DNA from: Gammaproteobacteria bacterium
GTDB taxonomy: Bacteria > Pseudomonadota > Gammaproteobacteria > GCA-001735895
Assembly (NCBI GenBank): GCA_050306135.1
Contig: JBNLGQ010000029.1
Location: forward strand, 43,585-107,584
Direction: 5' to 3'
Length of the DNA: 64,000 nucleotides
Shown here piece by piece: positions 40,109-61,154 of this stretch. Within the stretch, counting starts at the first letter, position 1; the number at the start of each line of letters is the position of its first letter. The position numbers were made by a program, and so were the translations under genes. The notes under the pieces are model-generated. The model made no database searches and had not been told where the DNA came from. It saw only the letters and a program-made list of their open reading frames with translations.

Positions 40109-40117
40109 GGAGAAAGA

Positions 40118-41111: not shown

Positions 41112-41119
41112 GATCTAAG

Positions 41120-41671: not shown

Positions 41672-41985
41672 CTTACAGTAGCCAGATTGTAGCCACCTGC
41701 CTCAATCTGGCTTAATCCTCTATCTGAGAGGTATAACATGGCTAAGGCAACCTCACCGATCCGATTACAGCAGGGGCTCATGCAGCAGACAGAATCAACA
41801 ACACGGCTTTTCATCGAAATATTCCGAGAAGATTGAATGTTGGACTAACTTTTTACCAAAGTTTTTATCGTTCTTTAACAATCATTAAAAATCAATCACT
41901 TACAGGGGATGTGTTTTTCATTGGTAAAACAGTAGAAATCCCCTTAAGTGTTTGTTGTGCAATGGATAAATATCAATTATCTTCA
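41672..41985 (+). promoter_or_regulatory. CRISPR leader (AT-rich, about 314 bp) between csy4 and the first repeat
   Basis: This AT-rich non-coding stretch lies directly 5' of repeat 1. The degenerate terminal repeat is at the far end of the array, so this side is the leader-proximal end. Confidence 0.7.
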
Positions 41986-44653
41986 GTTCACTGCCGCACA
42001 GGCAGCTTAGAAAGGTGCCTTGGGCACGAGCAATCAATTTTGAGAGTTCACTGCCGCACAGGCAGCTTAGAAATGCCTCCAGCACCTTTTTATATTTATC
42101 ACCGAGTTCACTGCCGCACAGGCAGCTTAGAAAATAATATACTTTTGCTATATGAAGTTTCGGAGTTCACTGCCGCACAGGCAGCTTAGAAATTCGAGCT
42201 TAACGGTGTCACCCGCGTCGGCCAGTTCACTGCCGCACAGGCAGCTTAGAAATGGTTACGGTACCGCTCCGACATCACACGGACCGTTCACTGCCGCACA
42301 GGCAGCTTAGAAATATGCAAGTGCAACCTCGTTTACTGTTGTAGGGTTCACTGCCGCACAGGCAGCTTAGAAATATCGAATAAATAACCGCTATCTGGCG
42401 GAATTGTTCACTGCCGCACAGGCAGCTTAGAAAAAGCTATGGACACAGGGCAGAGGATTTTCCTCGTTCACTGCCGCACAGGCAGCTTAGAAAATTAACT
42501 ATAAACTCATGAGATGGCATGCAGGGTTCACTGCCGCACAGGCAGCTTAGAAATCGTGTTGCCTACGTATAGCCGCCATAACTTCGTTCACTGCCGCACA
42601 GGCAGCTTAGAAAATCGGCGTAGTCGATTGCTCGCTGTATCGGCCGTTCACTGCCGCACAGGCAGCTTAGAAAATTGGATGGCATCGCGTCATTTGAGTC
42701 TACAGGTTCACTGCCGCACAGGCAGCTTAGAAAAGTCAATGAAGCAGGGGTTGGTATAGCGATTGGTTCACTGCCGCACAGGCAGCTTAGAAACGGATGC
42801 GCATTCATTGAAAACAGCCCAATGCGTTCACTGCCGCACAGGCAGCTTAGAAATTTACTCATCTAATGAAAGAGCTGGGCGAATTGTTCACTGCCGCACA
42901 GGCAGCTTAGAAATCCTAATACTGATTGGCAGCTTGCGGCAACTAGTTCACTGCCGCACAGGCAGCTTAGAAAACCCACAGATACCATCTGTACGTGGAG
43001 TCATTGTTCACTGCCGCACAGGCAGCTTAGAAAACAGTAACCTCACATCAGAAATTCTGCAAACCGTTCACTGCCGCACAGGCAGCTTAGAAATGAACAC
43101 GCGACATTTGAGGATGGCGGGAATGGTTCACTGCCGCACAGGCAGCTTAGAAATTCTTCAATCGCATCGAGTACTGCGGTTACAGGTTCACTGCCGCACA
43201 GGCAGCTTAGAAATACAAAATGGAATACTTCATATATGACAACTGGTTCACTGCCGCACAGGCAGCTTAGAAAATTACCAGCAAAGACAGACTGCAGCTG
43301 ATTACGTTCACTGCCGCACAGGCAGCTTAGAAATGCTATAAAGGCAGCGTGGTGTTTTCAGTCGGGTTCACTGCCGCACAGGCAGCTTAGAAAATTGTCA
43401 ACGCCATGCAGCCAGCGTACCCACGGTTCACTGCCGCACAGGCAGCTTAGAAATCAATAGCCATTAGCTCCTTACGACGCATAATGTTCACTGCCGCACA
43501 GGCAGCTTAGAAATTGTTAGAGTCCCCGATAAACCGACTATACATGTTCACTGCCGCACAGGCAGCTTAGAAAATCAACTAGAGTATCTGCATCAGGTAA
43601 TTCTGGTTCACTGCCGCACAGGCAGCTTAGAAACCTACTGGACGCGATCATCACCAGCGAGTAACGTTCACTGCCGCACAGGCAGCTTAGAAACAGCAGA
43701 TCCAGCGTCAGATCGTTGTTATCGCGTTCACTGCCGCACAGGCAGCTTAGAAAACCTTCAGCATTTGCTGATAGCGACCCGACATGTTCACTGCCGCACA
43801 GGCAGCTTAGAAACAGTGGATTGCCGGTAGTACCGCACTCAACCCGTTCACTGCCGCACAGGCAGCTTAGAAATGTGTGTTCTGCACGCATTCAGAAAGA
43901 AAGAAGTTCACTGCCGCACAGGCAGCTTAGAAAATGTACCTAGTTCATCTAAAACTAAAAGCCCAGTTCACTGCCGCACAGGCAGCTTAGAAAAGCTCAG
44001 GACCCGCGACATCAGTGGGTACCGGGTTCACTGCCGCACAGGCAGCTTAGAAAAATTCAGATAAATGGTACTGTACGCGAATCGAGTTCACTGCCGCACA
44101 GGCAGCTTAGAAATCTGAAACAACATCTCTAGCATGTGTACCACCGTTCACTGCCGTACAGGCAGCTTAGAAACAAATTCCGTAATTAGTAGCAGAATTT
44201 TTAGCGTTCACTGCCGCACAGGCAGCTTAGAAAGTTAAGGTCTTTTGGCCAGGTCATCAGAAACAGTTCACTGCCGCACAGGCAGCTTAGAAATAGTAGA
44301 ATTAACTAGCTATATCATCGATAAAGTTCACTGCCGCACAGGCAGCTTAGAAAATTGATTCGCACAGCTCAAGGAATGTAATTACGTTCACTGCCGCACA
44401 GGCAGCTTAGAAATAGATAGGTTCGAGTCGCCGCGGACGCCCCTTGTTCACTGCCGCACAGGCAGCTTAGAAAAGTTTTTGATTGCACTCTGGCAAAACT
44501 TTTTAGTTCACTGCCGCACAGGCAGCTTAGAAAAAGTCGATTCAACTTTAGCAGTAGAACCATGCGTTCACTGCCGCACAGGCAGCTTAGAAAACAGTAC
44601 AATTTAAAACCAGTAGCCAGATTATGTTAACTGCCGCACAGGCAGCTTAAAAC
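41986..44653 (+). CRISPR. Type I-F CRISPR array: 45 copies of the 28-bp repeat GTTCACTGCCGCACAGGCAGCTTAGAAA with 44 spacers of 31-33 nt
   Basis: The repeats were counted directly: 60-nt periodicity from 41986 through 44626. The repeat has the I-F (Yersinia-type) stem 'CTGCCGCACAGGCAG'. One internal repeat carries a SNP (44146-44173, 'CTGCCGTACAGGCAG'). The last repeat (44626-44653) is degenerate: 'GTTAACTGCCGCACAGGCAGCTTAAAAC'. Confidence 0.97.
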
Positions 44654-45024
44654 CGGATATGGGTAAATCATTATGCATACATCGAATGGCCGGCAAGTGA
44701 GCGACTCATCTGCGACAGCATACCTGTCTGTTATATTGCTTGATAGCAGCTGTTATAGGATCCTTTCAAGGCGCCATATTGTTGAGTTGGCTATCACAAT
44801 TCAGGTGAAATTTTCTGAAGACGTTATTCATCTAACTGATCTGAATATCAATCCCAAAATCGATGGCTGCGAGAAATTGATTTTGTGAGAAAAGAAAAAA
44901 CACATTTTTTGTTTTTTGTGCACTGAGAATTCAGGGATGAATTATTCAGGTCTCTCCCAAATAAACCATTTTTATCAAACTGTCATAATCCCCCTATAAG
45001 CTTGAATCGTTTAAATTAATTAGT

Positions 45025-46782
45025 GTGAAAGGCATGATCAATGTCGAGGCAATGCTGGATAATTTTTTACCGGACTTTAGAAACAAAAAGAAACGTCTGT
45101 ATAAAACAACAGTAGCTGTATTAAAAAAGATCCTGCATCAGGATGAAATCAATCAGTTTATTGACAGCCATAAACACCTTGAAGGCGTGGAGTTTCTGGA
45201 TGCGGTGCTGGACCATTTTGATTTTAAATATAGTCTGTCCAATCGCGACCGCGCTAATATCCCCGCACAGGGGCGTGTCATTATTGTGGCGAATCATCCA
45301 TTAGGTTCTCTGGATGGGCTGGCTTTATTGAAAATGGTTTCCGAGATCCGTCCTGATGTGAAAATTGTGGCGACTACCGTGCTGAGTCAGGTTAAACCGC
45401 TGGAGAATCTGTTTCTTAGCGTGGATAACCTGTCGAGTAAAGCGAGCCATATTGCCAGCCTGAAAAAGATTCTGGCTGCCTTGCAGCAGGAACAGGCGGT
45501 GATTATGTTTCCTACGGGAGAGGTTTCCCGCATTCGTCCACAGGGTGTGCGTGATGGCAAGTGGAAAACGGGCTTTGTCAGCATGGCTTACAAATCTAAC
45601 TCACCAGTGGTTCCTGTTTTCATTAATGGGAAGAATTCTACGCTGTTTTATAGCATGTCTACTCTGTATAAACCATTGGGTACCCTGATGCTGGTGATGG
45701 AGATGTTTAATAAGCAGGATCAGGAAATATCTTTTCGCGTGGGTAAACCAATTCCTGTTAATTCAATGAAGTTGCTGGATCTGCCACCTAAAAAAGTTGC
45801 AAAGCGGATGCGTAAGCAGGTTTATCGTTTGGCAAAAAATTTTAAGAAGCCACTATTCGAAACCATTGAAAATATTGTGCATCCGGTTAATCGTAAAAAT
45901 ATCCGCGATGAGCTTAAGCAATCTGAGTTTCTGGGTGCCACTCAGGATGGTATGGAAATCTATTTATTTGACTACCGATCAAATTCCAGTGTGATCCGTG
46001 AAATAGGAAGGTTAAGAGAGCTGTCGTTTCGACAGGTGCATGAAGGTACAGGCAAATCTATCGATGTTGATGAGTTTGATCGTTACTATCGCCATCTGGT
46101 GTTATGGGATGACAAGCAACTGGAGATCGTTGGCACTTATCGTATTGGTGAAGGTGCGCGTATCCTGGCGCAACATGGCATACAGGGGTTTTATACCAAT
46201 ACACTGTTTGAGTTACAGGGCTGTATGGTGGGTTATCTTGAAAAATCAATTGAACTGGGGCGTAGTTTTATCCAGCCACGTTACTGGGGTAAGCGTAGTT
46301 TGGATTACCTTTGGTATGGTATAGGTGCTTATCTTCAGAAACACCCGCAGGTTGAATATATGATTGGTCCTGTCACCTTGAGTGCTTCCTACCCTGAACA
46401 GGCGAAGCATGAAATTGTAAACTTCTATCAGCAATTATTTGGCAATAGCGATAATCTGGTTAAACCCAGACTGCCATATGATTACCCGGTTAGCAGTGAC
46501 TATGCTGAGTATCAGCAGGTATCTCAGGAATCAGATTATAAGCAGGCTTATTCACGTTTGAAAGTGAAGCTGGATGAGTTAGGGGTCAGAGTACCGACCC
46601 TGTTCAAACAGTATGTTGAGCTATGTAAGCCGGGTGGTTGTGAATTTCTGGGATTCAATGTGGATCCGGAATTTTCAAACTGTATAGATGCGATGATACT
46701 GGTACATATTGATGCGGTTTATGAAAAGAAGCGAGATCGTTATATCAATGTACATAATGTTAAAGTTGAGCAAGCTGCTTAG
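45025..46782 (+). CDS. Bifunctional acyltransferase: N-terminal PlsC-type (HX4D) domain fused to a C-terminal OlsB/GNAT-like N-acyltransferase domain. It is OlsF-like and a candidate ornithine/amino-lipid synthase.
   Basis: 585 aa with an 'VIIVANHPLGSLDG' HX4D motif and a 'FPTGE' block typical of lysophospholipid acyltransferases. The roughly 280-aa C-terminal half is of the hemolysin/OlsB-like acyltransferase type ('GTYRIGEGARIL'). This architecture matches the published OlsF of Serratia and Flavobacterium as I recall it. Confidence 0.5.
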   Translation: MKGMINVEAMLDNFLPDFRNKKKRLYKTTVAVLKKILHQDEINQFIDSHKHLEGVEFLDAVLDHFDFKYSLSNRDRANIPAQGRVIIVANHPLGSLDGLALLKMVSEIRPDVKIVATTVLSQVKPLENLFLSVDNLSSKASHIASLKKILAALQQEQAVIMFPTGEVSRIRPQGVRDGKWKTGFVSMAYKSNSPVVPVFINGKNSTLFYSMSTLYKPLGTLMLVMEMFNKQDQEISFRVGKPIPVNSMKLLDLPPKKVAKRMRKQVYRLAKNFKKPLFETIENIVHPVNRKNIRDELKQSEFLGATQDGMEIYLFDYRSNSSVIREIGRLRELSFRQVHEGTGKSIDVDEFDRYYRHLVLWDDKQLEIVGTYRIGEGARILAQHGIQGFYTNTLFELQGCMVGYLEKSIELGRSFIQPRYWGKRSLDYLWYGIGAYLQKHPQVEYMIGPVTLSASYPEQAKHEIVNFYQQLFGNSDNLVKPRLPYDYPVSSDYAEYQQVSQESDYKQAYSRLKVKLDELGVRVPTLFKQYVELCKPGGCEFLGFNVDPEFSNCIDAMILVHIDAVYEKKRDRYINVHNVKVEQAA

Positions 46783-47270: not shown

Positions 47271-47972
47271 ATGAAAAAAAGAATAACTAGTACTGTAGGT
47301 GTATTCACTGTTTTAACATTGATCACGATAAATGCTTATGCGGCCCCTTTTCGTCTACTGGGTGAAGTGGCCGATACCGGTGCTGCAAGCGCTGGCAGTG
47401 AGTCTGCTATTTATAACTATGATACCAATGCTGATATGCACTCTGGCACTTACAGCAGTTGGTCTTATACAGGATTCGACTGGAACTCAAGCTATTCAAC
47501 TGCAGGATTGGCATACGATGGCAAATACCGCCTAATAGGTGAAGTGGCCAACACTGGTGCTGCAAGCGCAGGTAATGAATCTGCTATTTATACCTATGAT
47601 TCCTACGCGGATATGCAGTCGGGCAATTACAGCAGCTGGTCTTATACAGGATTTGACTGGATTTCAAGTTATTCAACCGCGGGATTGGCATATGATGGCA
47701 AATACCGTCTGTTAGGTGAAGTAGCCGATACCGGTACTGCAAGCGCAGGTAGTGAATCTGCTATTTATACCTATGATACGTTCGATGATATGCTGTCTGG
47801 AACTTATAGTAGCTGGTCCTATACAGGGTTCGACTGGATTTCAAGTTATTCAACCGCGGGATTGGCATACGAATCTATACCAACATCTGAAGTACCAGAA
47901 CCAACGAGCCTTTTACTTATGGGGCTAGGGTTAGTAGGACTAGGATTTGCTCGTAAAAAACGAATCGTATAG
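47271..47972 (+). CDS. Secreted PEP-CTERM protein with three tandem repeats of about 59 aa
   Basis: It has a signal peptide. It then has three near-identical units ('RLLGEVADTGAASAGSESAIYTYD...SGTYSSWSYTGFDWISSYSTAGLAYDGKY'). The C-terminal sorting signal is 'VPEPTSLLLMGLGLVGLGFARKKR' (PEP + TM + basic). Confidence 0.75.
   Translation: MKKRITSTVGVFTVLTLITINAYAAPFRLLGEVADTGAASAGSESAIYNYDTNADMHSGTYSSWSYTGFDWNSSYSTAGLAYDGKYRLIGEVANTGAASAGNESAIYTYDSYADMQSGNYSSWSYTGFDWISSYSTAGLAYDGKYRLLGEVADTGTASAGSESAIYTYDTFDDMLSGTYSSWSYTGFDWISSYSTAGLAYESIPTSEVPEPTSLLLMGLGLVGLGFARKKRIV
47346..47880 (+). repeat. Three tandem direct repeats of about 177 bp inside the PEP-CTERM gene
   Basis: The DNA-level periodicity corresponds to the three protein repeats. 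There are only a few substitutions between copies. Confidence 0.8.
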
Positions 47973-48231: not shown

Positions 48232-48852
48232 TCATTTTGTTGTCAGGCTTTCATCATACCAGTCACTCATATCATCAATCATTTCACCCTTAATCAGGTA
48301 ATAAGGTGCTTTATGGTAAATATAGAAATCATGGAATGGATCGGTCAATATTTTGCTAAACCATACCAGACCCGATTGAATGCCCATGATGAAGAACAGA
48401 TGAACAGTTCTAAAGATTAATGCACCAGCGCCTATAAAAAGCCACAGCACTGAGGTGTTATAAATAAACTCATTCAGCGAGGTGTGAGGCTGTAGTAGAC
48501 CGAAAAAGTCAGGGTTGAAATACAGTACAAGAGGGGCGGCTACCCATACTGATAACAGTACAACCTTTCTACGTAGATTATAACCCACCTTAATACTTTC
48601 CTTGTATGCCTGACTGGCATCGTTGATCTCGTCGTACTCCAACGGTTCAAAGAAAAAATGTCCGCTTTGACGTAATACCATGGCCAGTAACCAACCGATC
48701 ATTACGGCTGCCACGGGATTGATAAAGATCAGTACGTAACTGGCCATAAAGCAGATACAGCTCAAAAAGTGTAAAAACTGATTGATTCGGTTCTGGTGAT
48801 AGTAACGATGATCATCCCAGCGTTGCTGACGTAGTTCCTGCATAAAAGTCAT
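48232..48852 (-). CDS. DUF962 / Mpo1-like integral membrane protein, last gene of the lipid operon
   Basis: 206 aa with four TM helices. It has an N-terminal 'YYHQNRINQFLH' (HxxN-type) segment and a 'GHFFFEP' motif, resembling the Mpo1/YGL010w family as I recall it. Confidence 0.45.
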   Translation of the reverse strand: MTFMQELRQQRWDDHRYYHQNRINQFLHFLSCICFMASYVLIFINPVAAVMIGWLLAMVLRQSGHFFFEPLEYDEINDASQAYKESIKVGYNLRRKVVLLSVWVAAPLVLYFNPDFFGLLQPHTSLNEFIYNTSVLWLFIGAGALIFRTVHLFFIMGIQSGLVWFSKILTDPFHDFYIYHKAPYYLIKGEMIDDMSDWYDESLTTK

Positions 48853-48894: not shown

Positions 48895-49773
48895 TTATTC
48901 TGAAATCGATGGCCTTTTTCTGAGTAGCGCCTGCCCCATCAGGATGGGAGTGTCGGTCTGTATATGGTCGAGTAACTGATAGTTAGATGAAGCAAATACA
49001 ATGATGGTTGAGCCATGCTGAAAGTAGCCCATTTCTTCGCCTTTACGATAACTTGCATTGCAGTTTAAATGGTTAGGGCCCTGGTATTTCAAATCCAGTG
49101 TTTCATTCAGGCAGTGGAATTTCATACTCGCCACCAGAATAGCGGCAACCGGCACCATTACCATGCAGTCATCTTGTTTACCCGTATGTAGTTCGATGAC
49201 TGCACGCTCATTTTTGCAATACAGCTTTTCAATGCGTTTAAGTGCTATGGGATTTACGTTCCAGGTGTCGCCGGAGATGTAGGTAATATCCGATACCGAA
49301 CAATCCTGCGGGGCATGGAATCGGTGGTACATGCTGGATTTCAGGCGCAGGGTGACAAAGATGCCATTACTGAGTTTTTTACAAAGACTGGTATCAGGTA
49401 TTAAGTCACTCAGTTCATAGGGGTAGCCCTTGGCCTGAAATAATGACTGGCCTTCAATATTTCCGCAGGCACCAACAATTGCATCACAGGGGCTGGTAAT
49501 AATGTCTTTATTTATATCCACAGGACGACTGCCTGGCTTTAACTGGCGTATAAAACAATCATGCAGGCTGCTGAAGTGTTGCTGTTGTGCTTCATTCAGA
49601 TTTAAATCGCTAGCAAATAGCTTCCATACGGCAATGGAAAAGCGTGTTAGCCATGGATTTTTAAGCTTGCTATACCAGCCCATAAACTGCGTTAGCAGAC
49701 GACGCGGAATACGATTTGTCAGCAGGAAGTTCAGCTGTTCCTGTTGAGTTAAGTGGCGGATTAATGATGTCAT
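48895..49773 (-). CDS. psd: Phosphatidylserine decarboxylase proenzyme
   Basis: It matches E. coli Psd in 'LFQAKGYPYEL', 'YHRFHAP', 'NERAV', and the self-cleavage site 'GYFQHGSTIIVF' (the G-S-T pyruvoyl-forming motif). Confidence 0.8.
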   Translation of the reverse strand: MTSLIRHLTQQEQLNFLLTNRIPRRLLTQFMGWYSKLKNPWLTRFSIAVWKLFASDLNLNEAQQQHFSSLHDCFIRQLKPGSRPVDINKDIITSPCDAIVGACGNIEGQSLFQAKGYPYELSDLIPDTSLCKKLSNGIFVTLRLKSSMYHRFHAPQDCSVSDITYISGDTWNVNPIALKRIEKLYCKNERAVIELHTGKQDDCMVMVPVAAILVASMKFHCLNETLDLKYQGPNHLNCNASYRKGEEMGYFQHGSTIIVFASSNYQLLDHIQTDTPILMGQALLRKRPSISE

Positions 49774-49787
49774 CGTGTGACAGATGC

Positions 49788-52508
49788 TCAGGCAACAGAA
49801 CGCGTTGCAAGTGGTTCCAGCACTATTGCTGACTCTTCACCCAGGCCCATATCTTCAGCAAACTGTTGCATGATCGGTTCTGCCTGATAATCTTCGCTGC
49901 GTAACCTGGCATTACCTTTCATTTTATAGCGCAGATCTGCATCGCTAAAATATTTGATGATGAGTTCAGCCATGTCATGCATATCCTCTGCGAGGAATCC
50001 GCTGACTCCATGCTGGATGATATTTTTCGGTCCTTTGCAATTATAGGAAACTACCGGCATACCATTAACAAAGGATTCCAGGATGACGTTACCAAAGGTG
50101 TCAAAGCGTGATGGGAAGACTTTAAGATCCAGTCCAGCATAAAGCTGGGACATGCGAGTTTTGTCAACCCAGCCCAGATACAGGGCTTCAGGGAATAGCT
50201 TTTTCAGTTCTTCTTCAGCTGGCCCAGATCCAGCAATGACCATGCGCACATCGGGTATGGCATTTTTTACCATGCGGTAAATTTTGGGTAATTCAAAGAT
50301 GCCTTTTTCCTTGCTGATACGGCTGGCAAATAGCATGACCTGAGTGTCTTCAGTTGCATCTTCAAATAGTGTGGCTTTGTCTACAGGTATTATAGAGACA
50401 TCCCTTGCCTGAGTATGATGCGCAGTTAGTAATACCTTATCCTCGTCCAGTTGCATCTGGTGACCGGTAAGCCAGTCTCTATGGTCATCATTAAGTACAA
50501 ATACACCAGCGAACTGTTGATAGAAGAAACGCAATATTCTGCGTAGCCGATCAATTTCATGCTGATTTAAGTCGGTTGTGTTATGGATGAAATCGAGCCA
50601 GTCGGTATGCATGAAAAAGTAGGCAGGCACATTAAACATATGTTTGATGAATAAGGCTGCAAATGCCATGGGCCCTTCGGTGGAGCAGACAATGCGATCA
50701 TAGCCACCTGCATAAAAGATGCGTGCAATCTCCATAAAATCCGGGATGCGTATCTCCTGTTCGCCGAATTCAGAGAGTGTCAAACTGGTTAAGGGACGTA
50801 TCACATGTAAATGTGGTGCTGCTTCGGCATCAGCGTGGCAGATGAGAAAATCGATGGGTAGATCAGCCTGCTGTATATGTTTCAATTTACCCGATAAGGA
50901 ACTGGATACACCATTTTTATCCAGCAAGGTGTCCGTAAGATAGAGCGCCCGCCTGGGGTGATGGCTGGTACCAATATGGTCGGCAAACTCATTCAGGAAG
51001 CGTCTGTTCTGATACAGTAAACGGGTACTAGCCAGCGTTGTCCCTAGTAGTATCACGCCTACTAAAAAAGGAAACGATAAATTATCCAGTAGCGAAGAAA
51101 AGTTGTAACAACTCATCCCCGGTTTATTGCTTTTACCCCCAAAGATTAACTCTGTGAGCTGGCTGGGTACTTCAAACTTGCGTGTCAGCTCTTCGCTGGA
51201 AAATGATTTCAACTTGTATTCGCTGGTACTACTGGATGTGGTTTTCAGGCGCTTTATAACCAACAGGTTGAGTCCTTTAAAAAGTGCTGGTATCGCTTCG
51301 TTAACGGTCTGGATGAAAACTTCAGTAGATTTGTTTCTACTATCTGCAATGTTTTCCAGATGTTGAATACAGAAGCGATAATCTTTTTTGATTTTCCATT
51401 TAACCAGTTTATTGGGTTTTTTACCCTGTAGGGCATCGTGGATAAACTTGAAGAACTTCTGTGTGTTTTTATGTTTCTGCATCTCCAGTAACAGATTACT
51501 GATAAGGAAACAGGCCAGTTTGTCGGACACTTCACCACGATGAAACATAATGCGCAATAAGCCGGGGTCCTGGATATGCGTAGCAACCTGAGAGAAGTAA
51601 TCCAGCAGAGCGATATTCAGTTTCTGGTTTTCAGCAACAAGGCCATAGGGAGCAATATTGCCTTTGCGAATGGCTTCCAATGCCAGTGTCGAAGCCGTAT
51701 CGGTTTTTAATCGCTGCTTGAGATTTGGGATATATAGATAACTGCCAGATTGACCGGCAAACATACCCATATGATCATCTGAGCCACCGCTTAGTACTTT
51801 TGCCTGATCTGGGTCCACACCAAATTCAGCTGGGTTAAGATTATGCTTGCGTCCGTATGCGCGTATTTTTTCTGCGCTCAGGCTTTTAATCCATTTCAGG
51901 GTTAGTACCGATTGCCATTGATCTCGTTGGCCGTTGACGACTTCAAAACGTTGAAACATAACCGCCAGTTTTTCGAACAGGGAGAGATTGATTTTGTCAT
52001 TACGTGTATAAAAATACAGTGGATGCGGCAGAATAACGGGAATGTCACATTTATGTGCATAACGCAGAAACTGATAGATGTTGTCACGTTTATGATTGAG
52101 CTCCTTTTCCTGATGACGATTAAAACCATAGGCCAGCACATGTACGAATAAATCATATTCAGGAAAGTGGCAGGTAAACTCAGCGGCAGTTAAAACATCT
52201 TCACCCTGATCCTGTAATTCCCAGCAGGAATTCGCATTATTATGATTGGTGATGGTAATGACATCACAGTGACTTTGTTTAAGTTGTTTGACCAGCTTTT
52301 TGGTTTTCAGCCAGGTTTCGGGCAGGCCAAGAATGCGACCCCATAGCTCATCGGGTACATCGCTGTTTTTATCATGGCAGTGCAGGTCAATCTTAAGGCA
52401 GTCTTCGCGTTTGAAGCGGTTGGATTCGTTGAGTAGATAAGCATTGAACTCACGGGTTAAGGAATTTCTAAATTCACTTACTGATTCGTTTGATGTAGGT
52501 AATATCAT
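49788..52508 (-). CDS. Fusion protein: N-terminal PHP-family metal-dependent phosphoesterase domain, a central TM segment, and a C-terminal GT4 (GT-B) glycosyltransferase domain
   Basis: The PHP motifs appear in order: 'IDLHCHD' (HxH), 'ITNHNN', 'EF..HFPEYD', 'VHVLAYG', 'LPHP', and 'GGSDDHMG' (DxH). There is a TM helix 'FPFLVGVILLGTTLA'. The C-terminal GT4 domain has 'VMLFASRISKEKG', 'VRMVIAGSGPAEEEL', and 'FGNVILESFVNGMPVVS' (E-X7-E region). Confidence 0.65.
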   Translation of the reverse strand: MILPTSNESVSEFRNSLTREFNAYLLNESNRFKREDCLKIDLHCHDKNSDVPDELWGRILGLPETWLKTKKLVKQLKQSHCDVITITNHNNANSCWELQDQGEDVLTAAEFTCHFPEYDLFVHVLAYGFNRHQEKELNHKRDNIYQFLRYAHKCDIPVILPHPLYFYTRNDKINLSLFEKLAVMFQRFEVVNGQRDQWQSVLTLKWIKSLSAEKIRAYGRKHNLNPAEFGVDPDQAKVLSGGSDDHMGMFAGQSGSYLYIPNLKQRLKTDTASTLALEAIRKGNIAPYGLVAENQKLNIALLDYFSQVATHIQDPGLLRIMFHRGEVSDKLACFLISNLLLEMQKHKNTQKFFKFIHDALQGKKPNKLVKWKIKKDYRFCIQHLENIADSRNKSTEVFIQTVNEAIPALFKGLNLLVIKRLKTTSSSTSEYKLKSFSSEELTRKFEVPSQLTELIFGGKSNKPGMSCYNFSSLLDNLSFPFLVGVILLGTTLASTRLLYQNRRFLNEFADHIGTSHHPRRALYLTDTLLDKNGVSSSLSGKLKHIQQADLPIDFLICHADAEAAPHLHVIRPLTSLTLSEFGEQEIRIPDFMEIARIFYAGGYDRIVCSTEGPMAFAALFIKHMFNVPAYFFMHTDWLDFIHNTTDLNQHEIDRLRRILRFFYQQFAGVFVLNDDHRDWLTGHQMQLDEDKVLLTAHHTQARDVSIIPVDKATLFEDATEDTQVMLFASRISKEKGIFELPKIYRMVKNAIPDVRMVIAGSGPAEEELKKLFPEALYLGWVDKTRMSQLYAGLDLKVFPSRFDTFGNVILESFVNGMPVVSYNCKGPKNIIQHGVSGFLAEDMHDMAELIIKYFSDADLRYKMKGNARLRSEDYQAEPIMQQFAEDMGLGEESAIVLEPLATRSVA

Positions 52509-54229
52509 AGCTCGCTAACCTCTTCGGCTTTGGGCAGGCCTGTGTAGCCAGTTTTCGGTTTTATCCATCTGGAAAGCACGGGAAAGCGAGCAGCAATCAT
52601 TTCTTTCAACATTATTCGCTTGATGGCTTTATTACTCAGATTGGGGTTATGCCACCACCAACCATCATTTTTCATCTGCCTGGCAGCAGCAATAAATAAA
52701 TCAACTACCTTCAGAAAATCTTCATCGCTGAAATTATGGCTCATGATGATTCGGCCACTACCAACCCAGCTGAGACTCAGTCCCTGCGCTTTCAGATAGA
52801 ACTGAAACATCCAGTTATAACGCGATGGCTGGGTATACAGAATGGTCCAGATAGACATGAGGTTGGCAATTCTAACGGGCAGGCCTTCGTCATGCAGACG
52901 CTTGTTGAGCAGGCTGACGCGCGCGTTCCATAGCTCATCGGCATGTTGATAATTGTTTTGATACTCAGGCTGCTGAATGCGCGTTAAGAACTGATGCATG
53001 CAGGCCATCACATAAGGATGTGAATTAAAGGTTCCGCGTGCGAAAGAGATATCTACAGGCTGTTCAGGTTTATAGCGTTTCATCAATGCATGACTGCCAC
53101 AGACCACACCTACAGGCAGTCCGCCACCCAAGGTTTTGCCGTAGGTAACTATGTCTGCCTGTATGCCAAAATACTCCTGAGCACCACGATAACCCAGACG
53201 AAAACCGGTAAACACTTCATCAAAGATTAAAACGATAGCTCGTTCGATACAGACTTCACTGACCTGCTTTAACCACCGACTATAGGCTTTTCGATCAAAG
53301 TGAGCGCTACGGTCGCTGTTAACCAATGAAGCATCGCTGGAAGCATCGGCGTTAGGATGTAAACCCTGTAAGGGATTGATCAGTACACAGGCGATATCAT
53401 TACGTGTACGTAACACCTTTAATGTTGTGTCGCTCATATCCTGTAGTGTGTATACATCATGGCTGGCACGCTGGTTACCTATGCCTGGTTGTACACCATC
53501 CCACCAGCCGTGGTAGGCGCCGCATAAACGAACCAGATGCGTTTTTCCCGTGTGGTAACGTGCCAGACGAACCGCCTGCATCACAGCCTCGGTGCCGGAC
53601 ATGTGAAAAGATACTTCATCCAGGCCGGATATCTTTTTTAAGCGCTCAACATTGCTTTTAATAATGGGGTGATAGGCCCCAAGTACTGGACCCATATCTT
53701 TCACCATTTCCATGCCGTCCTGCATGCACTGTTTGTAAAAATCATAACCAAACACGTTGACCCCGTAAGAGCCAGTCAGGTCATAGCTCCAGTTACCATC
53801 CAGGTCTTTAACCTTGACACCTTTTGATTCCTTCACGGCATTGGGCAGGGTTAATTGGGTAGCGAGGTATTTTCTATAAGGAAAGGGAACTCGATACTGG
53901 TTGGTGAATTCAACATCTGAAATACTGTCCTGCACTGAGTGATTGAATTCAATGCCTTTGAGCATGTGTTGATTAAAATGCTTTTTGAGTCTGTTCAGGG
54001 CCTGACGGCGTTGCTGAGTAATATTCTGCGGGGCAGCATCGCTACAGAAGAAATTAACTTCATTGTATTCAAAGTAGGGGATGAGCCTTGCAACACGGCG
54101 TGACATTTTTGAATGTCCGCGTAGCGATGGATGTTTGGCGCGTGAAAGGCGTAAGCGAATCCATAGTCTATAGGATAGATACAATGCAATAAACAGGATG
54201 AAAATATTTTGTAGTGTAATCTCGGGCAT
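52505..54229 (-). CDS. Membrane-anchored class-III (GSA-aminomutase-like) PLP-dependent aminotransferase, first gene of the lipid operon
   Basis: 574 aa. The N-terminal TM helix is 'IFILFIALYLSYRLWI', followed by an extension of about 100 aa. The class-III core has 'FDEVFTGFR' and the PLP-lysine motif 'YGKTLGGGLPVGVV'. It overlaps the downstream gene by 4 nt. Confidence 0.7.
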   Translation of the reverse strand: MPEITLQNIFILFIALYLSYRLWIRLRLSRAKHPSLRGHSKMSRRVARLIPYFEYNEVNFFCSDAAPQNITQQRRQALNRLKKHFNQHMLKGIEFNHSVQDSISDVEFTNQYRVPFPYRKYLATQLTLPNAVKESKGVKVKDLDGNWSYDLTGSYGVNVFGYDFYKQCMQDGMEMVKDMGPVLGAYHPIIKSNVERLKKISGLDEVSFHMSGTEAVMQAVRLARYHTGKTHLVRLCGAYHGWWDGVQPGIGNQRASHDVYTLQDMSDTTLKVLRTRNDIACVLINPLQGLHPNADASSDASLVNSDRSAHFDRKAYSRWLKQVSEVCIERAIVLIFDEVFTGFRLGYRGAQEYFGIQADIVTYGKTLGGGLPVGVVCGSHALMKRYKPEQPVDISFARGTFNSHPYVMACMHQFLTRIQQPEYQNNYQHADELWNARVSLLNKRLHDEGLPVRIANLMSIWTILYTQPSRYNWMFQFYLKAQGLSLSWVGSGRIIMSHNFSDEDFLKVVDLFIAAARQMKNDGWWWHNPNLSNKAIKRIMLKEMIAARFPVLSRWIKPKTGYTGLPKAEEVSEL

Positions 54230-54315
54230 GCTCGCGGACCGGAATATAATTTGCGAGACGCTAACATGTGAAAATGACAGTCTGGTTTCAATGTTGAAGT
54301 TTCGGTATTTTTAAT

Positions 54316-54397
54316 GGTTTAAGCACAGAGGACACTGAGAGCACAGAGAATATATTATTTGATATCTTCTTCGTGGCCTTCGTGAGCTTCGTGGTTA
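54316..54397. repeat. CACAGAG/CACGAAG 9-bp-periodic repeat pair (variant forward 54316-54348, canonical reverse 54369-54397) in the divergent lipid-operon/phnC promoter region
   Basis: The forward unit is 'GGTTTAAGCACAGAGGACACTGAGAGCACAGAG'. It is followed by 'CTTCGTGGCCTTCGTGAGCTTCGTGGTTA'. Confidence 0.75.
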
Positions 54398-54558
54398 TCC
54401 TGTTTTTTTCGTTCCCATGCTCTGAGATGGAATGCGTATGAACTGGCGTGGCAATGTGACTTTTCTTTTAGATTCTGTAACAAAAATTTAATAATTCCAT
54501 AACATTTTCGACATATTTAAAGGCTAAAGTGTGCCGCATTAAATTTTCGAGAAGTGTA

Positions 54559-55401
54559 ATGTCTGAAGCCATCAGGATTTCATCGTTGTCCAAAACCTTC
54601 AACAGGAAGATTGCGTTAGATGATATTTCTATACGCATAGCTGAAGGTGAAATTGTGGCACTGATCGGCCCCAGTGGGTCAGGTAAGTCTACTTTACTAC
54701 GTCACATTGCAGGACTTGAAGTTTCGGATAAGAATTCAAGCACTGAAGTTACCGTAGATGGATTGCCGGTACAGAATAATGGCAGGCTGACAAAAGGTGC
54801 CAGAAAGGCACGCGTTAAAATAGGACTCATCTTTCAGCAGTTTAATTTAATAAATAGATTGAATGTGCTGACCAATGTATTGATCGGTTGCCTGGGTAGT
54901 ATTCCCGCCTGGCGTGGCACTCTAGGTATTTTCACTCAACAGGAAAAGAGCAGGGCGTTGGAGGCGCTTGATCGTGTCGGGTTAAAGGAAATTGCCTTTC
55001 AACGAGCCTCTACCTTATCGGGTGGGCAACAACAACGCGTTGCGATTGCACGCAGTTTAATGCAGCAGGCCAACGTCATACTTGCCGATGAGCCTATTGC
55101 CTCTCTCGATCCAAAATCAGCCAAAACCGTCATGCGTTATCTACGCGATATCAATAAGCATGATGGTAAGTCAGTGGTTGTAACCCTGCATCAGGTGGAT
55201 TATGCGCGTAAATACTGTAAACGCGTCATAGCACTGGTGGATGGAAAAATTGCTTTTGATGGAAAAGCCAAAGAGCTCACCGATAAGGTTCTGGAAAAAC
55301 TCTATGGCACAGCAATGTCAGATGACGATGAAGATGTCATTGTCGAACAGCAACAACCTGTCTATCCGGCAGCCAAATTGATAGCTGGTATATCAGGTTA
55401 A
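54559..55401 (+). CDS. phnC: Phosphonate ABC transporter ATP-binding protein
   Basis: It has Walker A 'GPSGSGKST', the signature '[13 protein letters not shown]', and Walker B 'ILADEP'. The start is set at ATG 54559. The ORF is open from 54529. Confidence 0.85.
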
Positions 55402-55428
55402 TCATTAATTAAAAAACTGGAGTACTAT

Positions 55429-56439
55429 ATGTTTCGTAAATTTATCAAGCCTGCCATAGCCGCGGCTGCAATTACTGCCTCAGTGATGATGCCAAGCGCC
55501 TCATTCGCTGACACCAAAATCCTGAATTTCGGTATTATCTCAACCGAATCATCGCAAAATCTTCGCACTATCTGGAATCCCTTCCTGGAAGATATGGGTA
55601 AAAAGCTGGGCGTAAAGGTTAAAGCATTTTTTGCACCTGACTATGCCGGTATTATCGAAGGCATGCGCTTTAACAAGGTAGATGTTGCCTGGTTTGGAAA
55701 TAAGTCTGCTATGGAAGCGGTTGATCGTGCAGGCGGAGAAATTTTTGCACAGACTGTTGACATAGAAGGTAACCCTGGTTACTGGTCATTACTGGTTACC
55801 CATAAGGATAGCAAAATTAATTCAGTTGAAGATATGCTGAAAAATGCGAAGGACCTGACTTTTGGTAACGGCGATCCTAATTCAACGTCGGGTTTCCTGG
55901 TGCCTTCATACTATGTTTTCGCTAAAAACCATGTAGATCCCAAGAAAGCATTCAAACGTGTACTGAATTCAAATCATCAGACTAATCTACTGGCCGCTGC
56001 TAGCAAGCAGGTAGATGTTGCTACTAACAATACTGAAAACTACCGACGCCTTGAAGTCACTCATCCTGACAAGGTTGAAAATATCAAAATTATCTGGAAA
56101 TCCCCTCTGATTCCTTCTGATCCAATCGTATGGCGCAAGAATATGGACGAAGGCACCAAGAACAGGATTTATGATTTCTTCATGACTTATGGTACTCAGG
56201 ATAACAGGGAAAAAGAAATTCTGACTGCTTTACAGTGGGCTCCTTTTAGTGCATCTAGCGATGATCAGTTGATTCCTATCCGTCAGCTGGTGCTATTCAA
56301 AAAGCGTGTAAAGCTTGAAGCCGATGAGCAGTTATCAGCCAGTGAAAAGAAAGCAAAGATTGCTGAAATTGATGATCAGCTGAATGTACTTAAGCGTCGT
56401 TCTGCTGCACTACAGGCCTTCGCTGCAAAAAATTCATAA
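55429..56439 (+). CDS. phnD: Phosphonate ABC transporter periplasmic binding protein
   Basis: 336 aa with a signal peptide. It has the PhnD-family binding-protein pattern and sits between phnC and phnE. Confidence 0.8.
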   Translation: MFRKFIKPAIAAAAITASVMMPSASFADTKILNFGIISTESSQNLRTIWNPFLEDMGKKLGVKVKAFFAPDYAGIIEGMRFNKVDVAWFGNKSAMEAVDRAGGEIFAQTVDIEGNPGYWSLLVTHKDSKINSVEDMLKNAKDLTFGNGDPNSTSGFLVPSYYVFAKNHVDPKKAFKRVLNSNHQTNLLAAASKQVDVATNNTENYRRLEVTHPDKVENIKIIWKSPLIPSDPIVWRKNMDEGTKNRIYDFFMTYGTQDNREKEILTALQWAPFSASSDDQLIPIRQLVLFKKRVKLEADEQLSASEKKAKIAEIDDQLNVLKRRSAALQAFAAKNS

Positions 56440-56467
56440 ATCCATTTGTCTGTCCCCGACGGATATT

Positions 56468-56497
56468 CCGGGTCGTGTATACGACCCGGTGTTTTTA
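56468..56497 (+). terminator. Intra-operon hairpin/attenuator between phnD and phnE
   Basis: 'CCGGGTCGTGTATACGACCCGG' is a perfect 8-bp stem followed by TGTTTTT. Confidence 0.6.
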
Positions 56498-56577
56498 TAA
56501 ATCATTTCATCAAAGACTAAAAGTAAAAGGGCTTTAATGAAATGAAACCGCTGTTATGAATTCTTTAGGTCAACACA

Positions 56578-57366
56578 ATGAGTGAAACACTAAATTTAGA
56601 AAACCCGCAACAACGCAGCTCAATAATTAATCTTATTGGTTGGGCTGCGGTTTTACTGTTGCTGAGCTGGTCCTGGAAGGGGGCAGAAATGAACCCCTGG
56701 GCGCTGGTTGAATACAGCGGCAATATGCTGGAGCTGGGGGCTGATTTTTTTCCTCCCAATCTACATGACTGGGATCTGTATGTTCATGAAATGATTATCA
56801 CGGTGCAGATAGCAATATGGGGAACGGTACTGGCGATTGTCGCTGCGGTACCCTTTGGGATTCTGTCTTCAGAAAATCTCATGCCGTGGTGGATATCCCA
56901 GCCGACGAGACGACTGATGGACTCAGCCCGGGCCATCAATGAAATGGTTTTCGCGATGCTGTTTGTCGTCGCCGTGGGGCTGGGACCTTTTGCAGGTGTG
57001 ATGGCCTTGTTCGTCCACACCACAGGGATTCTGGCGAAACTGTTTTCAGAGGCCGTTGAAGCCATAGAACCAGGTCCAGTAGAAGGCGTGCGTGCAACCG
57101 GTGCAACTGCCATACAGGAGATAATTTATGGTGTCATTCCACAGGTATTACCGCTATGGATTTCTTTTTCACTGTATCGTTTTGAATCCAATGTACGCTC
57201 TGCCACGGTACTCGGCATGGTGGGCGCGGGTGGTATTGGTGTCATCCTGTGGGAAAGTATTCGCGGCTTTATGTTCCAGGAAACCTGTACCGTGATACTG
57301 ATTATTATTGTATCGGTGACCCTGCTCGACCTGCTCTCACAGAAGCTACGCAGAATGGTGATTTAG
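56578..57366 (+). CDS. phnE: Phosphonate ABC transporter permease
   Basis: 262 aa with six TM helices of the binding-protein-dependent permease type. It lies downstream of phnD. Confidence 0.8.
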
Positions 57367-57810
57367 GTGAATACACAACAACGACAGCAATTGATTTCAG
57401 TATTGGCCAAATCATCTTTGTCCGATATCAAAAAATACTGGAAGCAATCTTTAGAAGATTTTGATTACAGCACATTACGTCAGCCTCAAACAGGCATGGT
57501 AATGGCAGTTGCCAGAACAGAGGCCAAAGGCGATCCGTTCAATTTGGGTGAAGTCAGTGTAACACGCTGCGCAATAAGGTTAAGCAGCGGCGAGACTGGA
57601 ATTGGTTATGTAATGGGCAGTAATAAGGAGCACGCACTACATGTCGCGATGCTGGATGCTATTGCGCAAAAGCAGAATCAGTACGCAGAGGTACATGCTC
57701 AGCTTATACAACCATTACAGCAAAAGCTTTTACAGACGCATCAAAAACAGCAGCAAAAAACAGATTCAACCCGGGTAGATTTTTTTACCATGGTGAGAGG
57801 AGAAGATTAA
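57367..57810 (+). CDS. phnG: C-P lyase core complex subunit PhnG
   Basis: 147 aa. The C-terminal 'RVDFFTMVRGED' matches the E. coli PhnG C-terminus as recalled. Confidence 0.8.
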   Translation: MNTQQRQQLISVLAKSSLSDIKKYWKQSLEDFDYSTLRQPQTGMVMAVARTEAKGDPFNLGEVSVTRCAIRLSSGETGIGYVMGSNKEHALHVAMLDAIAQKQNQYAEVHAQLIQPLQQKLLQTHQKQQQKTDSTRVDFFTMVRGED

Positions 57811-58421
57811 TGAATAATATTCAAGACGTTGTACAGGTACAACCAGGGCTTAGTAATCCCGTTTACGATTCGCAGGGGATCTTTCGCCTGTTATTAAAAG
57901 GTATGGCTGAGCCGGGCCTTATTGCACGCCTGGACGATGTACCTGACTTTCCGGTGGGGCTGAATGCGGCAAGTTATGCGGTGGCGCTTGCATTGTTTGA
58001 TCAGGATACGCGTATCAACCTTACCGCTTCTCTACAACAGACAGCGATCAAAGAATCATTACGCTTCCATACCGCAGCTGCATTAGTAGAGGACTGTGAT
58101 ACGGCCGATTTTGTCATCTGTAATGAATCTGACCGTCCCGATCTGGATCAGCTGAATGCCGGCACCGAAACCTATCCTGATCAATCCTGTACGCTGATTA
58201 TTCAATGTGAATCTTTTTTTAAGGGCATCATCTATCGAGCTAGCGGTCCGGGTATTGAAACCTCGCGTAAGATCCGTTGTAGCGGCTTTAACGGTACGCT
58301 TCTGCATCAGCGAGAAAATCTGGCCGCTCAATTCCCGCTGGGTATAGATTTGATTCTCAGCTGTGGGCGTGAGTTTTTCTGTATTCCACGGACCACCAAA
58401 CTATTGATCGAGAATAACTGA
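57810..58421 (+). CDS. phnH: C-P lyase core complex subunit PhnH
   Basis: 'LRFHT', 'FPLGIDLILSCG' and 'IPRTT' match E. coli PhnH. Confidence 0.8.
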   Translation: MNNIQDVVQVQPGLSNPVYDSQGIFRLLLKGMAEPGLIARLDDVPDFPVGLNAASYAVALALFDQDTRINLTASLQQTAIKESLRFHTAAALVEDCDTADFVICNESDRPDLDQLNAGTETYPDQSCTLIIQCESFFKGIIYRASGPGIETSRKIRCSGFNGTLLHQRENLAAQFPLGIDLILSCGREFFCIPRTTKLLIENN

Positions 58422-59527
58422 TGTACGTAGCAGTAAAAGGTGGAGAGAAGGCCATACACGCAGCGCATAGGTTGTTGCGTGAGAAACGTCGTGGTAATGA
58501 CACTGAAAAGGCATTAACCATTGCTCAGATTCAACAGCAAATGCCTTATGCGGTTGATCGAGTGATGACCGAAGGTTCCTTATACGATCCGCAACTGGCT
58601 GCTTTGGCGATCAAGCAGGCTGCGGGAGACTTGATTGAGGCTATCTTTTTATTGCGTGCCTTTCGAACGACTCTGGAACGCTTTTGTGACAGTCTGCCAT
58701 TGGATACCGATAGTATGCGTATTGAAAGACGTATCTCGGCTGCTTTCAAGGATGTACCTGGTGGTCAGGTGTTAGGTCCAACCTTTGACTATACCCATCG
58801 CCTGCTGGATTTCAGCCTGCTGGATGAAGAGGAGGCAGGGGTATCTCCGGAACAGGATAGCGAAGTCACCTTGCAGGAGCAGGCATTTGCGCATGTGCTG
58901 GAGACGATGAATGACGAAGATATTATTGAACAACAGCTATCGGATAATCTCTCTCCCAGTTTTGATATCACTCAACAACCGCTTGAATATCCGGCTAATC
59001 GCAGTACACGATTACAGGCACTTGCGCGTGGTGATGAAGGGTTTCTGCTGGCGCTAGGTTATTCGACCCAGCGCGGTTATGGCAGAACGCATCCCTTTGC
59101 CGGTGAGATAAGAATAGGTCAGGCTGCCTTAAGCATACAACCCGAAGAACTGGGTTTTGAGATTGAGATTGGTGAAATCACCCTGACCGAATGCGATATG
59201 ATTAACCAGTTTAAGGGGTCAAAGAAGGTGCAGCCCAGATTTACCCGGGGCTATGGCCTGTCCTTTGGGCATAATGAACGTAAGGCCATGTCTATGGCAT
59301 TGGTAGATAGAGCCCTACGCGGTACAGAACTGGGTGAAGACTTTGGCAGCCCCGCGCAGGATGAGGAATTTGTACTGGCTCATGCAGATAATGTGGAAGC
59401 GGTGGGCTTTGTATCACATCTTAAATTACCCCATTACGTAGATTTTCAGTCAGAACTGGAATTGATCCGTAAGATACGCAAGGCCGCTGTTAAAGACCAG
59501 GAGAATGATGTGGAGTCAGCAGCATGA
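58421..59527 (+). CDS. phnI: C-P lyase core complex subunit PhnI
   Basis: 368 aa, the expected size, at the expected position between phnH and phnJ. It is translationally coupled on both sides. Confidence 0.8.
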   Translation: MYVAVKGGEKAIHAAHRLLREKRRGNDTEKALTIAQIQQQMPYAVDRVMTEGSLYDPQLAALAIKQAAGDLIEAIFLLRAFRTTLERFCDSLPLDTDSMRIERRISAAFKDVPGGQVLGPTFDYTHRLLDFSLLDEEEAGVSPEQDSEVTLQEQAFAHVLETMNDEDIIEQQLSDNLSPSFDITQQPLEYPANRSTRLQALARGDEGFLLALGYSTQRGYGRTHPFAGEIRIGQAALSIQPEELGFEIEIGEITLTECDMINQFKGSKKVQPRFTRGYGLSFGHNERKAMSMALVDRALRGTELGEDFGSPAQDEEFVLAHADNVEAVGFVSHLKLPHYVDFQSELELIRKIRKAAVKDQENDVESAA

Positions 59528-61150: not shown

Positions 61151-61154
61151 AAAC

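Follow-up and report, generated by a model that had tools for sequence, protein, structure and literature searches.

The aminotransferase (AMT) domain of MycA, a mycosubtilin synthase, aminates a carrier-bound β-keto fatty acyl chain, a lipid that is presented to the domain from outside. HpnO (aminobacteriohopanetriol), ArnB and GnnB (lipid A sugars) and GenB/NeoB (C-6′) aminate lipid or glycolipid precursors or sugars, ArnB and GnnB being members of a different aminotransferase class. To our knowledge, the enzymes of this second group are soluble proteins whose substrates are nucleotide sugars or other soluble compounds, and we know of none that is tied to a phosphatidylserine decarboxylase (PSD) or a DUF962 protein. 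A major way in which marine and soil bacteria adapt to scarce phosphorus is to replace their phospholipids; the substitutes described so far are glycolipids, ornithine lipids and betaine lipids. In PlcP-Agt remodelling, a phospholipase C and a GT4 glycosyltransferase make glucosyl- and glucuronosyl-diacylglycerol under phosphate stress (e.g. PMC4796936, PMC8528852). Here we describe a 574-residue, membrane-anchored class-III pyridoxal 5′-phosphate (PLP) aminotransferase, encoded at 52505..54229 of a 64,000-nucleotide stretch from a gammaproteobacterium of the GCA-001735895 lineage (assembly GCA_050306135.1, contig JBNLGQ010000029.1, positions 43,585 to 107,584). We refer to this whole stretch as the window and number all positions within it; the aminotransferase operon and the features assigned to it below lie on the minus strand. 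On balance, we lean towards the view that the enzyme is a lipid head-group transaminase working in a widespread, uncharacterised lipid-remodelling module for phosphate starvation.

The catalytic part of the protein belongs to a well-known fold. Pfam Aminotran_3 (PF00202) matches residues 129–510 with 119.3 bits against a gathering score of 30.5, and the PLP catalytic fold, aligned to PDB 6KFM, covers residues 117–523 (52661..53881). The Schiff-base lysine Lys365 (53135–53137) lies within TYGK365TLGGG. In an alignment of 21 diverse homologues, K365, D337 and S211-G212-T213 (SGTEA) are invariant and line up with the motifs of the MycA AMT domain, and judging from these residues the PLP site is intact. 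In a search of the PDB, the closest solved relative is that same AMT domain (6KFM/6KFU; phmmer 3.6e-47), and a Foldseek comparison of the AlphaFold2 model with 6KFM gave 3.8e-26 and a TM-score of 0.81 on the target at an identity of about 26%. The two share the class-III fold and the motifs SGTEAV, DE(V/I)xTGFR and TYGKxxGGG. However, the MycA domain is embedded in a polyketide synthase/nonribosomal peptide synthetase (PKS/NRPS) megasynthase and receives its substrate on an acyl carrier protein (ACP), whereas the protein of the window stands alone, brings its own transmembrane helix and an extension of about 115 residues, and has no carrier-protein genes nearby. Further relatives by fold and sequence are glutamate-1-semialdehyde (GSA) aminomutases, β-transaminases, D-phenylglycine aminotransferase (D-PhgAT) and the GenB C-6′ sugar aminotransferases; among the other PDB matches, GenB uses sugar C-6′ aldehydes as substrates, and another enzyme a long-chain aminopentol. 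A preliminary description of this DNA had called the protein a class-III, GSA-aminomutase-like aminotransferase, and the Pfam match, the PLP motifs and the fold comparison agree with that assignment.

The protein is nevertheless not HemL as far as its sequence can tell. The best NCBIfam models are indeed HemL models, but the scores (169 bits for TIGR00713 and 171 bits for NF000818) fall far below the equivalog cut-offs of 527 and 398, and no curated NCBIfam family claims the protein. HemL belongs to the same subgroup of class-III PLP enzymes; its chains in the PDB have 411–438 residues and none carries a comparable N-terminal extension, in contrast to the anchored 574-residue protein of a lipid operon described here. 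Homologues are labelled glutamate-1-semialdehyde 2,1-aminomutase by JGI. Since the scores lie so far under the equivalog cut-offs, the HemL name in public data is a misnaming, and the family appears to be uncharacterised.

What sets the protein apart is its N-terminus. A predicted transmembrane helix occupies roughly residues 4–24 (54158..54220); the top 17-residue Kyte-Doolittle window starts at residue 4 with a score of 1.74, and AlphaFold2 draws a helix over residues 2–31. We compared the protein with a set of 121 sequences, built from the first 120 listed database homologues (62–94% identical, nearly all 558–598 residues long). In 119 of the 121, the motif R[LF]xLSxAKH follows a hydrophobic segment whose Kyte-Doolittle score, taken over 17 residues, has a median of 2.21; the remaining two are one short gene call and one fragment. 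The helix varies in sequence while its hydrophobicity is kept. Its N-terminal flank has a median of three residues and a net charge of –1, and the 25 residues that follow it carry a net charge of +8 and never less than +5. This charge distribution follows the positive-inside rule, so that the helix is predicted to be a reverse signal anchor (N-out/C-in) with the catalytic domain in the cytoplasm. Directly after the helix lies the basic juxtamembrane motif RLRLSRAKHPSLRGHSKMSRRVA (residues 25–47, 54089..54157), in which R25, L26, L28, S29, A31, K32, H33, G38, H39, S43, R44 and R45 are invariant across the 21 diverse homologues.

The motif leads into a helical part of the extension (residues 48–116, 53882..54088). 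AlphaFold2 places helices at residues 40–49, 57–60, 68–88, 90–98 and 106–112, and the chain is helical up to residue 123. The extension ahead of the canonical fold measures about 115 residues, because PDB alignments start at residues 115–117. Searching residues 1–128 against 1.84 billion representatives returned 469 matches, every one of them N-terminal, and the three longer matches that were checked all carried the aminotransferase fold. Apart from fragments and full-length aminotransferases, this search revealed no other architecture carrying the extension, save one chimera, and residues 48–116 thus seem to be confined to this aminotransferase family. In this lone case (P0171, 490 residues), the N-terminal half of the family is combined with an MlaC lipid-binding domain, probably through an artefact of assembly or gene calling. 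A hydrophobic N-terminal helix and an extension of about 100 residues had been proposed in the preliminary description, and both recur throughout the family.

At the other end of the protein, a tryptophan cluster (DGWWW) is followed by two basic helices (residues 524–556, 52562..52660). W524 and W526 are invariant and W525 is nearly so among the 21 sequences, and AlphaFold2 models the helices at residues 533–548 and 550–556. We infer that this element could possibly provide a second contact with the membrane interface.

The anchor depends on where translation begins. Nine invariant residues (R25–H39) lie upstream of the next possible start, M42, and position 42 is Trp, not Met, in most homologues. 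Moreover, tblastn against raw, unannotated genomic DNA aligned to residue 1 in several loci. On these three grounds the long start is the right one and a downstream start at M42, which would have undone the idea of an anchored enzyme, is rejected from the pattern of conservation. No clear Shine-Dalgarno sequence precedes the first ATG. The NCBI gene call P0393 (533 residues) is identical to the protein of the window from M42 onward, and an 81%-identical homologue (P0008, 532 residues) has likewise been called from the internal Met42. Because these calls begin 41 codons late, public annotations miss both the anchor and the basic motif.

The genes around the aminotransferase recur with it. At least 595 relatives are present in species-representative genomes, and we examined 80 loci, whose hosts are Gamma-, Zeta-, Alpha- and Betaproteobacteria, Planctomycetota, Acidobacteriota, Myxococcota, Binatia and Margulisiibacteriota. 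Carriers in culture include Marinobacter confluentis HJM-18, M. metalliresistant CuT 6, Glaciecola petra P117, Bradyrhizobium neotropicale, B. embrapense and Variovorax sp. OV329. By tblastn, a PSD paralogue is found in 76 of the 80 loci and an Mpo1-like (DUF962) membrane protein in 77, nearly all absences falling at contig ends; the matches are 48–69% identical to the proteins of the window. We call the aminotransferase and these two partners the triad. Clustering of the locus genes, after removal of antisense shadow open reading frames (ORFs), recovered six further recurring genes and none beyond them: a stand-alone GT4 (53 of 80 loci), a PmtA-like N-methyltransferase (22), a GT4 fused to a PHP domain (17), an LpxH/PlcP-like metallophosphoesterase (14), a membrane protein without a named family (11) and a flippase-like, LPG_synthase_TM-like protein (9). 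The preliminary description had supposed that the extension always accompanies the glycosyltransferase fusion. This does not hold, given that the fused form is the minority and the stand-alone form the common one; the broader association does, in that the extension travels with the PSD paralogue and the DUF962 protein and usually with a GT4. The partners (GT4, PSD-like and Mpo1-like) are all membrane or membrane-surface head-group enzymes, in line with the earlier placement of the aminotransferase in a lipid operon.

The phosphoesterase and the methyltransferase have preferred positions. The metallophosphoesterase gene sits directly beside the stand-alone GT4 in five of its 14 loci and is absent from all loci that have the PHP fusion. 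A PlcP-type metallophosphoesterase was not found in the window; the GT4 there carries a fused PHP domain instead. On clustering, GT4 neighbours of PlcP-like genes fall together with GT4 neighbours of the triad. In alphaproteobacteria, the methyltransferase (about 240 residues) is encoded on the same strand between the GT4 and the Mpo1-like gene; it is a relative of the Legionella-type phospholipid N-methyltransferase PmtA, scoring 154 bits where the cut-off is 390, and loci with it include L029, L031, L034, L035, L037, L038, L040–L042, L044, L050, L055–L058, L065, L067–L070 and L072. Across the 80 loci we found no conserved ACP, ketosynthase, NRPS or acyl-activating gene; no tetrapyrrole genes lie near the aminotransferase, and few of the related loci have an OlsF-like gene close to the triad.

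In the window, the aminotransferase gene runs into a gene for a 906-residue protein, the stop and start codons overlapping by 4 nt (ATGA, 52505..52508), as expected from the translational coupling to a PHP-GT4 gene noted earlier. Its C-terminal part (residues 520–906, 49788..50951) is a GT4 domain, an assignment that is certain from the Pfam matches (PF00534, 97 bits; PF13692, 84 bits; PF13439, 30 bits). For the N-terminal 513 residues Pfam offered nothing useful: PHP (PF02811) did not match the protein of the window and reached an E-value of 0.14 in two of 17 members. The AlphaFold2 model of this domain has a pLDDT of 87, and each of its five PDB fold matches at E ≤0.001 is a PHP phosphoesterase of RNase AM/TrpH type (best 7UG9, E 2e-7); the top folds are 7UG9, 9ETK, 3O0F and 2YB1. 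The residues D41, H43, H45, D53, H89, E110, H123, H162, D244 and H246 are invariant in the locus alignments. In a wider set, the six from H89 onward remain invariant and D41, H43, H45 and D53 are at least 90% conserved. Since the fold matches PHP enzymes and the set of metal ligands is conserved, the label PHP-GT4 is right, with a PHP-type phosphoesterase domain and helical region at residues 1–456 (51141..52508).

Between the two domains lies a single hydrophobic segment (residues 477–498, 51015..51080; Kyte-Doolittle score 1.75), and arginines are found C-terminal to it. If the segment were a true membrane span, the 470-residue PHP domain would be periplasmic without a signal peptide; it may instead be an in-plane or re-entrant anchor. 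The PHP-like N-domain also occurs in a larger family of proteins of 640–750 residues with a GT4 N-terminal half (L081, L082; P0290–P0390), with hosts among Bacteroidales/Tannerella, Planctomycetes, Spirochaetota, Lentisphaerae and Acidobacteria. Such relatives in other phyla lack the triad and adjoin PLD-like, PAP2, Exo_endo_phos and further GT4 genes. The PHP-GT4 unit would therefore be a lipid module of its own that the triad has joined.

The PSD paralogue (48895..49773, 292 residues) is a pyruvoyl enzyme with clear family scores (PF02666, 183 bits; TIGR00163, 164 bits against a cut-off of 111.75). The cleavage motif G254-S255-T256, H150 (H144 in E. coli) and D97 are conserved among 71 family members. 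It shares with the type I enzyme E. coli Psd (PDB 6L06, 7CNW) the family, GST autocleavage, the catalytic His and N-terminal membrane helices. The difference lies in the divergence, the paralogue of the window being 30.6% identical to E. coli Psd, whereas module copies are 48–68% identical to the window copy across phyla. Arg143 occupies the position of the phosphate-binding Tyr137 of the E. coli enzyme, a variant seen in 15% of PSDs (PMC7952604). The PSD family also includes decarboxylases of non-lipid substrates. The Mpo1-like protein (48232..48852, 206 residues) has about four hydrophobic segments and carries His motifs, in which H15, H19, H28 and H65 are invariant; these motifs are consistent with a metal enzyme. 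PF06127 was matched by all 22 relatives scanned (best E 8.4e-6).

The setting of the operon points to phosphate limitation, a context absent from the preliminary description. It lies between olsF and a divergently transcribed phnCDE-GHIJKLM operon for carbon-phosphorus (C-P) lyase, with which it has a 299-bp intergenic region (54230–54528) in common. A C-P lyase (phn) operon is a classical member of the Pho regulon. The phosphonate uptake and C-P lyase operon spans 54529–63707. NCBIfam equivalogs identify its phnC, phnD, phnE, phnG, phnH, phnK, phnL and phnM genes; phnH and phnK are separated by two ORFs that matched nothing at E 1e-20 and presumably represent phnI and phnJ, and the last protein of the operon falls just under its NCBIfam cut-off. 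OlsF, a bifunctional ornithine-lipid synthase (45025–46782; NF052615, 805 bits against a cut-off of 620), is encoded on the opposite strand about 1.4 kb from the end of the aminotransferase operon, with a gene for a PEP-CTERM protein (47271–47972) in between.

Pho-box-like sites are enriched upstream of the aminotransferase across related loci. With composition-matched shuffles as background, 21.8% of 78 loci have a site matching at least 11 of 14 positions within 200 bp upstream of the gene, compared with 1.0% of the shuffles, an enrichment of about 20-fold, and 54% compared with 10% have one matching at least 10 of 14. The stand-alone GT4 shows the same pattern (28% against 1.1% of shuffles). 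Bradyrhizobium and other alphaproteobacteria have near-perfect boxes at –42, the Bradyrhizobium box being CTGTCATGAATCTGTCAG, and good boxes precede several gammaproteobacterial, betaproteobacterial and Binatia loci. In the window itself, the ATG is closely preceded by a promoter-like site TTCACA-N18-TATATT (54243..54272, 10 of 12 matches, by consensus match only), and at 54274..54291 there is a weak Pho-box-like repeat, TTGAAACCAGACTGTCAT (10 of 14), with similar sites at a like relative position in L003 and L004. A strict search of the window gave 6 matches where 6.5 were expected, and none upstream of the aminotransferase at three or fewer mismatches. Taken together, these sites suggest that the module is probably under PhoB/phosphate-starvation control.

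We propose that the aminotransferase is a bitopic inner-membrane protein with a short periplasmic tail and one transmembrane helix, whose basic segment, helical extension and entire class-III domain would be cytoplasmic. The anchor would hold the active site at the membrane surface, where the enzyme could transfer an amino group to (or from) a head-group carbonyl of a membrane lipid rather than of a soluble metabolite. A membrane-associated substrate, as the preliminary description had suggested, is far likelier than a cytosolic one in view of the place of the gene in a head-group lipid operon, and the closest solved relative, the MycA AMT domain, aminates a lipid chain. The module would consist of the aminotransferase, a GT4 (PHP-fused in the window; elsewhere stand-alone and sometimes with a PlcP-like phosphoesterase), the PSD paralogue and the Mpo1-like protein as a putative Fe-dependent membrane oxygenase. 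In a possible sequence of steps, the phosphoesterase and GT4 would supply a phosphorus-free, diacylglycerol-based backbone; the Mpo1-like enzyme would oxidise a hydroxy(acid) function of the head group to a carbonyl; the aminotransferase would turn this carbonyl into an amine or α-amino acid; the PSD paralogue would decarboxylate a serine-like head group to an ethanolamine-like one; and in alphaproteobacteria the PmtA-like enzyme would N-methylate it. The product would be an amine-bearing surrogate for phosphatidylethanolamine (PE) or phosphatidylcholine (PC). The order of hydroxyl, carbonyl and transamination, by which an amine is placed on a lipid-related molecule, is the logic of HpnO, ArnB, GnnB and GenB, and GenB-type enzymes are among the PDB matches of the aminotransferase. 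The resemblance to PlcP-Agt remodelling lies in the GT4 (known here at the level of its domain) beside a phosphoesterase, and the Pho-box enrichment and the olsF and phn neighbours would suit such a setting. The difference is that in the window the GT4 itself carries the phosphoesterase, as a fused PHP domain, and that three further enzymes are added; among the PlcP-Agt papers listed (e.g. PMC4796936, PMC8528852), aminotransferase and phosphatidylserine decarboxylase have zero occurrences.

This proposal starts from what the sequences show, namely which domains are present, that the anchor is conserved, which genes travel together and that Pho-box-like sites are enriched, and several points weigh against it. 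The weakest is chemical: no clean route leads from a sugar head group made by a GT4 to the α-amino acid that a pyruvoyl PSD would decarboxylate, and either the PSD paralogue acts on phosphatidylserine (PS) itself or the head group differs from the assumed one. We infer the substrate, the amino donor, the direction of the reaction, the order of steps and the product. The Mpo1-like protein of the window scores 23.4 bits with PF06127, just under the gathering score of 24. The topology of the aminotransferase is predicted from hydropathy and charge counts alone, and its AlphaFold2 model is of only moderate confidence (pLDDT 74.7), with disordered loops. A few loci (L005, L074, L079) have the triad without a close GT4 within their flanks. 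Neither the promoter-like site nor the Pho-box-like site of the window is significant on its own (p about 0.18 for the latter), and the related loci are phylogenetically non-independent, although the strong sites come, by our own count, from about ten distinct lineages.

The chemical route was considered in its variants. Sugar-based routes to a PSD substrate were rejected on chemical grounds, by reasoning and not by computation, because oxidation at C5 or oxidative decarboxylation of a pyranosyl uronic acid opens the ring and frees diacylglycerol. A path from phosphatidylglycerol via phosphatidylglycerate to PS, a lipid-linked copy of SerA/SerC, would be chemically neat, but is disfavoured because its product is a phospholipid, in cells that are probably starved of phosphate, and because the GT4 would have nothing to do in it.

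The fuller version of the head-group transaminase hypothesis names a product, and we put it forward tentatively, as somewhat less likely than not. In it, the module makes an undescribed phosphorus-free, amine-bearing lipid under phosphate starvation, N-methylatable in alphaproteobacteria, and the transaminase installs the nitrogen. The lipid would be a surrogate for PE or PC on a diacylglycerol or glycolipid backbone, the methyltransferase being optional. Its makers would number hundreds of species, among marine Gammaproteobacteria, Zetaproteobacteria, Bradyrhizobium, Burkholderiales, Planctomycetota, Acidobacteriota and Myxococcota. The presence of a methyltransferase and a flippase-like protein speaks for synthesis of a new amine lipid rather than for breakdown. 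A word-based full-text search, with subscription journals outside its scope, found no paper describing this gene set.

Breakdown is the main rival, and we regard it as unlikely, if a serious contender. The module would then salvage phosphorus from PS and PE: the PSD paralogue would funnel PS into PE, the anchored PLP enzyme would attack the amine of PE or of freed phosphoethanolamine, by transamination to an aldehyde or by β-elimination, the PHP/PlcP-like phosphoesterase would free phosphate and diacylglycerol, the GT4 would make a glycolipid, and the Mpo1-like enzyme would oxidise the two-carbon remnant. Ethanolamine-phosphate phospho-lyase, an enzyme with the class-III fold, performs a β-elimination of this kind. 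Salvage gives the PSD a natural use, and the Arg at its phosphate-binding position and its E. coli-like N-terminal helices suit a true phospholipid substrate; the probable Pho regulation and the association with phosphoesterases and a diacylglycerol-type GT4 also fit. However, the aminotransferase is nearest to transaminases and aminomutases of the GSA-AM/AMT/β-transaminase group, and no phospho-lyase is among its 49 PDB matches at E ≤1e-10. The PmtA-like methyltransferase beside the GT4 and Mpo1-like genes in 22 loci and the flippase-like protein in nine suit synthesis better, and in known systems, as described in published abstracts, PlcP alone already frees diacylglycerol.

The kinship to MycA raises a different idea, namely that the enzyme aminates a β-keto fatty acyl chain on ACP or on a lipid to give a β-amino acyl lipid. 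We hold this to be improbable. Although the MycA AMT domain is the closest relative by sequence and structure and β-transaminases are close as well, the identity to it is low, the carrier and chain-building genes that such chemistry would draw on are not conserved in the 80 loci, and the partners are head-group enzymes.

Two further readings have very little to commend them. That the protein is an ordinary soluble HemL paralogue starting at M42, with the upstream stretch untranslated, would fit the JGI name, the NCBI call and the lack of a clear Shine-Dalgarno sequence, but is already contradicted by the conservation of residues 25–41 across phyla, the Trp at position 42, the helix and motif in nearly every homologue, the low equivalog scores and the lack of tetrapyrrole genes nearby. 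Hardly more credible is the idea that the hydrophobic segment of about 20 residues acts as a signal peptide, cleaved from an enzyme that is secreted or resides in the periplasm, given that the n-region is short and net negative, strong positive charge follows the helix, no signal-peptidase-type motif is conserved, and PLP transaminases need cytoplasmic amino donors.

Elsewhere, the window holds a complete type I-F CRISPR-Cas locus (33026–44700), with a Cas2-3 fusion (33982–37359), Csy1 (37359–38894), Csy2 (38891–40108) and Csy3 (40089–41111); the ORFs at 33026–33985 and 41120–41671 are probably Cas1 and Cas6f. From about 41985 on runs a long array, in which the repeat GTTCACTGCCGCACAGGCAGCTTAGAAA recurs at least 42 times with a spacing of 60 nt. 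An Lhr-type large helicase (1434 residues, 15963–20267) and a GntR-aminotransferase (MocR-like) regulator (20695–22254) appear unrelated to the aminotransferase described here.

On the practical side, the late start codons of public gene calls illustrate how an error of 41 codons can hide a membrane anchor. For the bacteria concerned, the module is tightly conserved across phyla, its proteins sharing about 50–70% identity, and very widespread, with no product assigned to it. Should it turn out to make a new lipid or to recycle aminophospholipids by a new route, the module would supply a missing piece of bacterial membrane remodelling. It would then also give functions to bacterial DUF962 proteins and to a family misannotated as HemL, and would offer a new phosphorus-stress marker for metagenomes.

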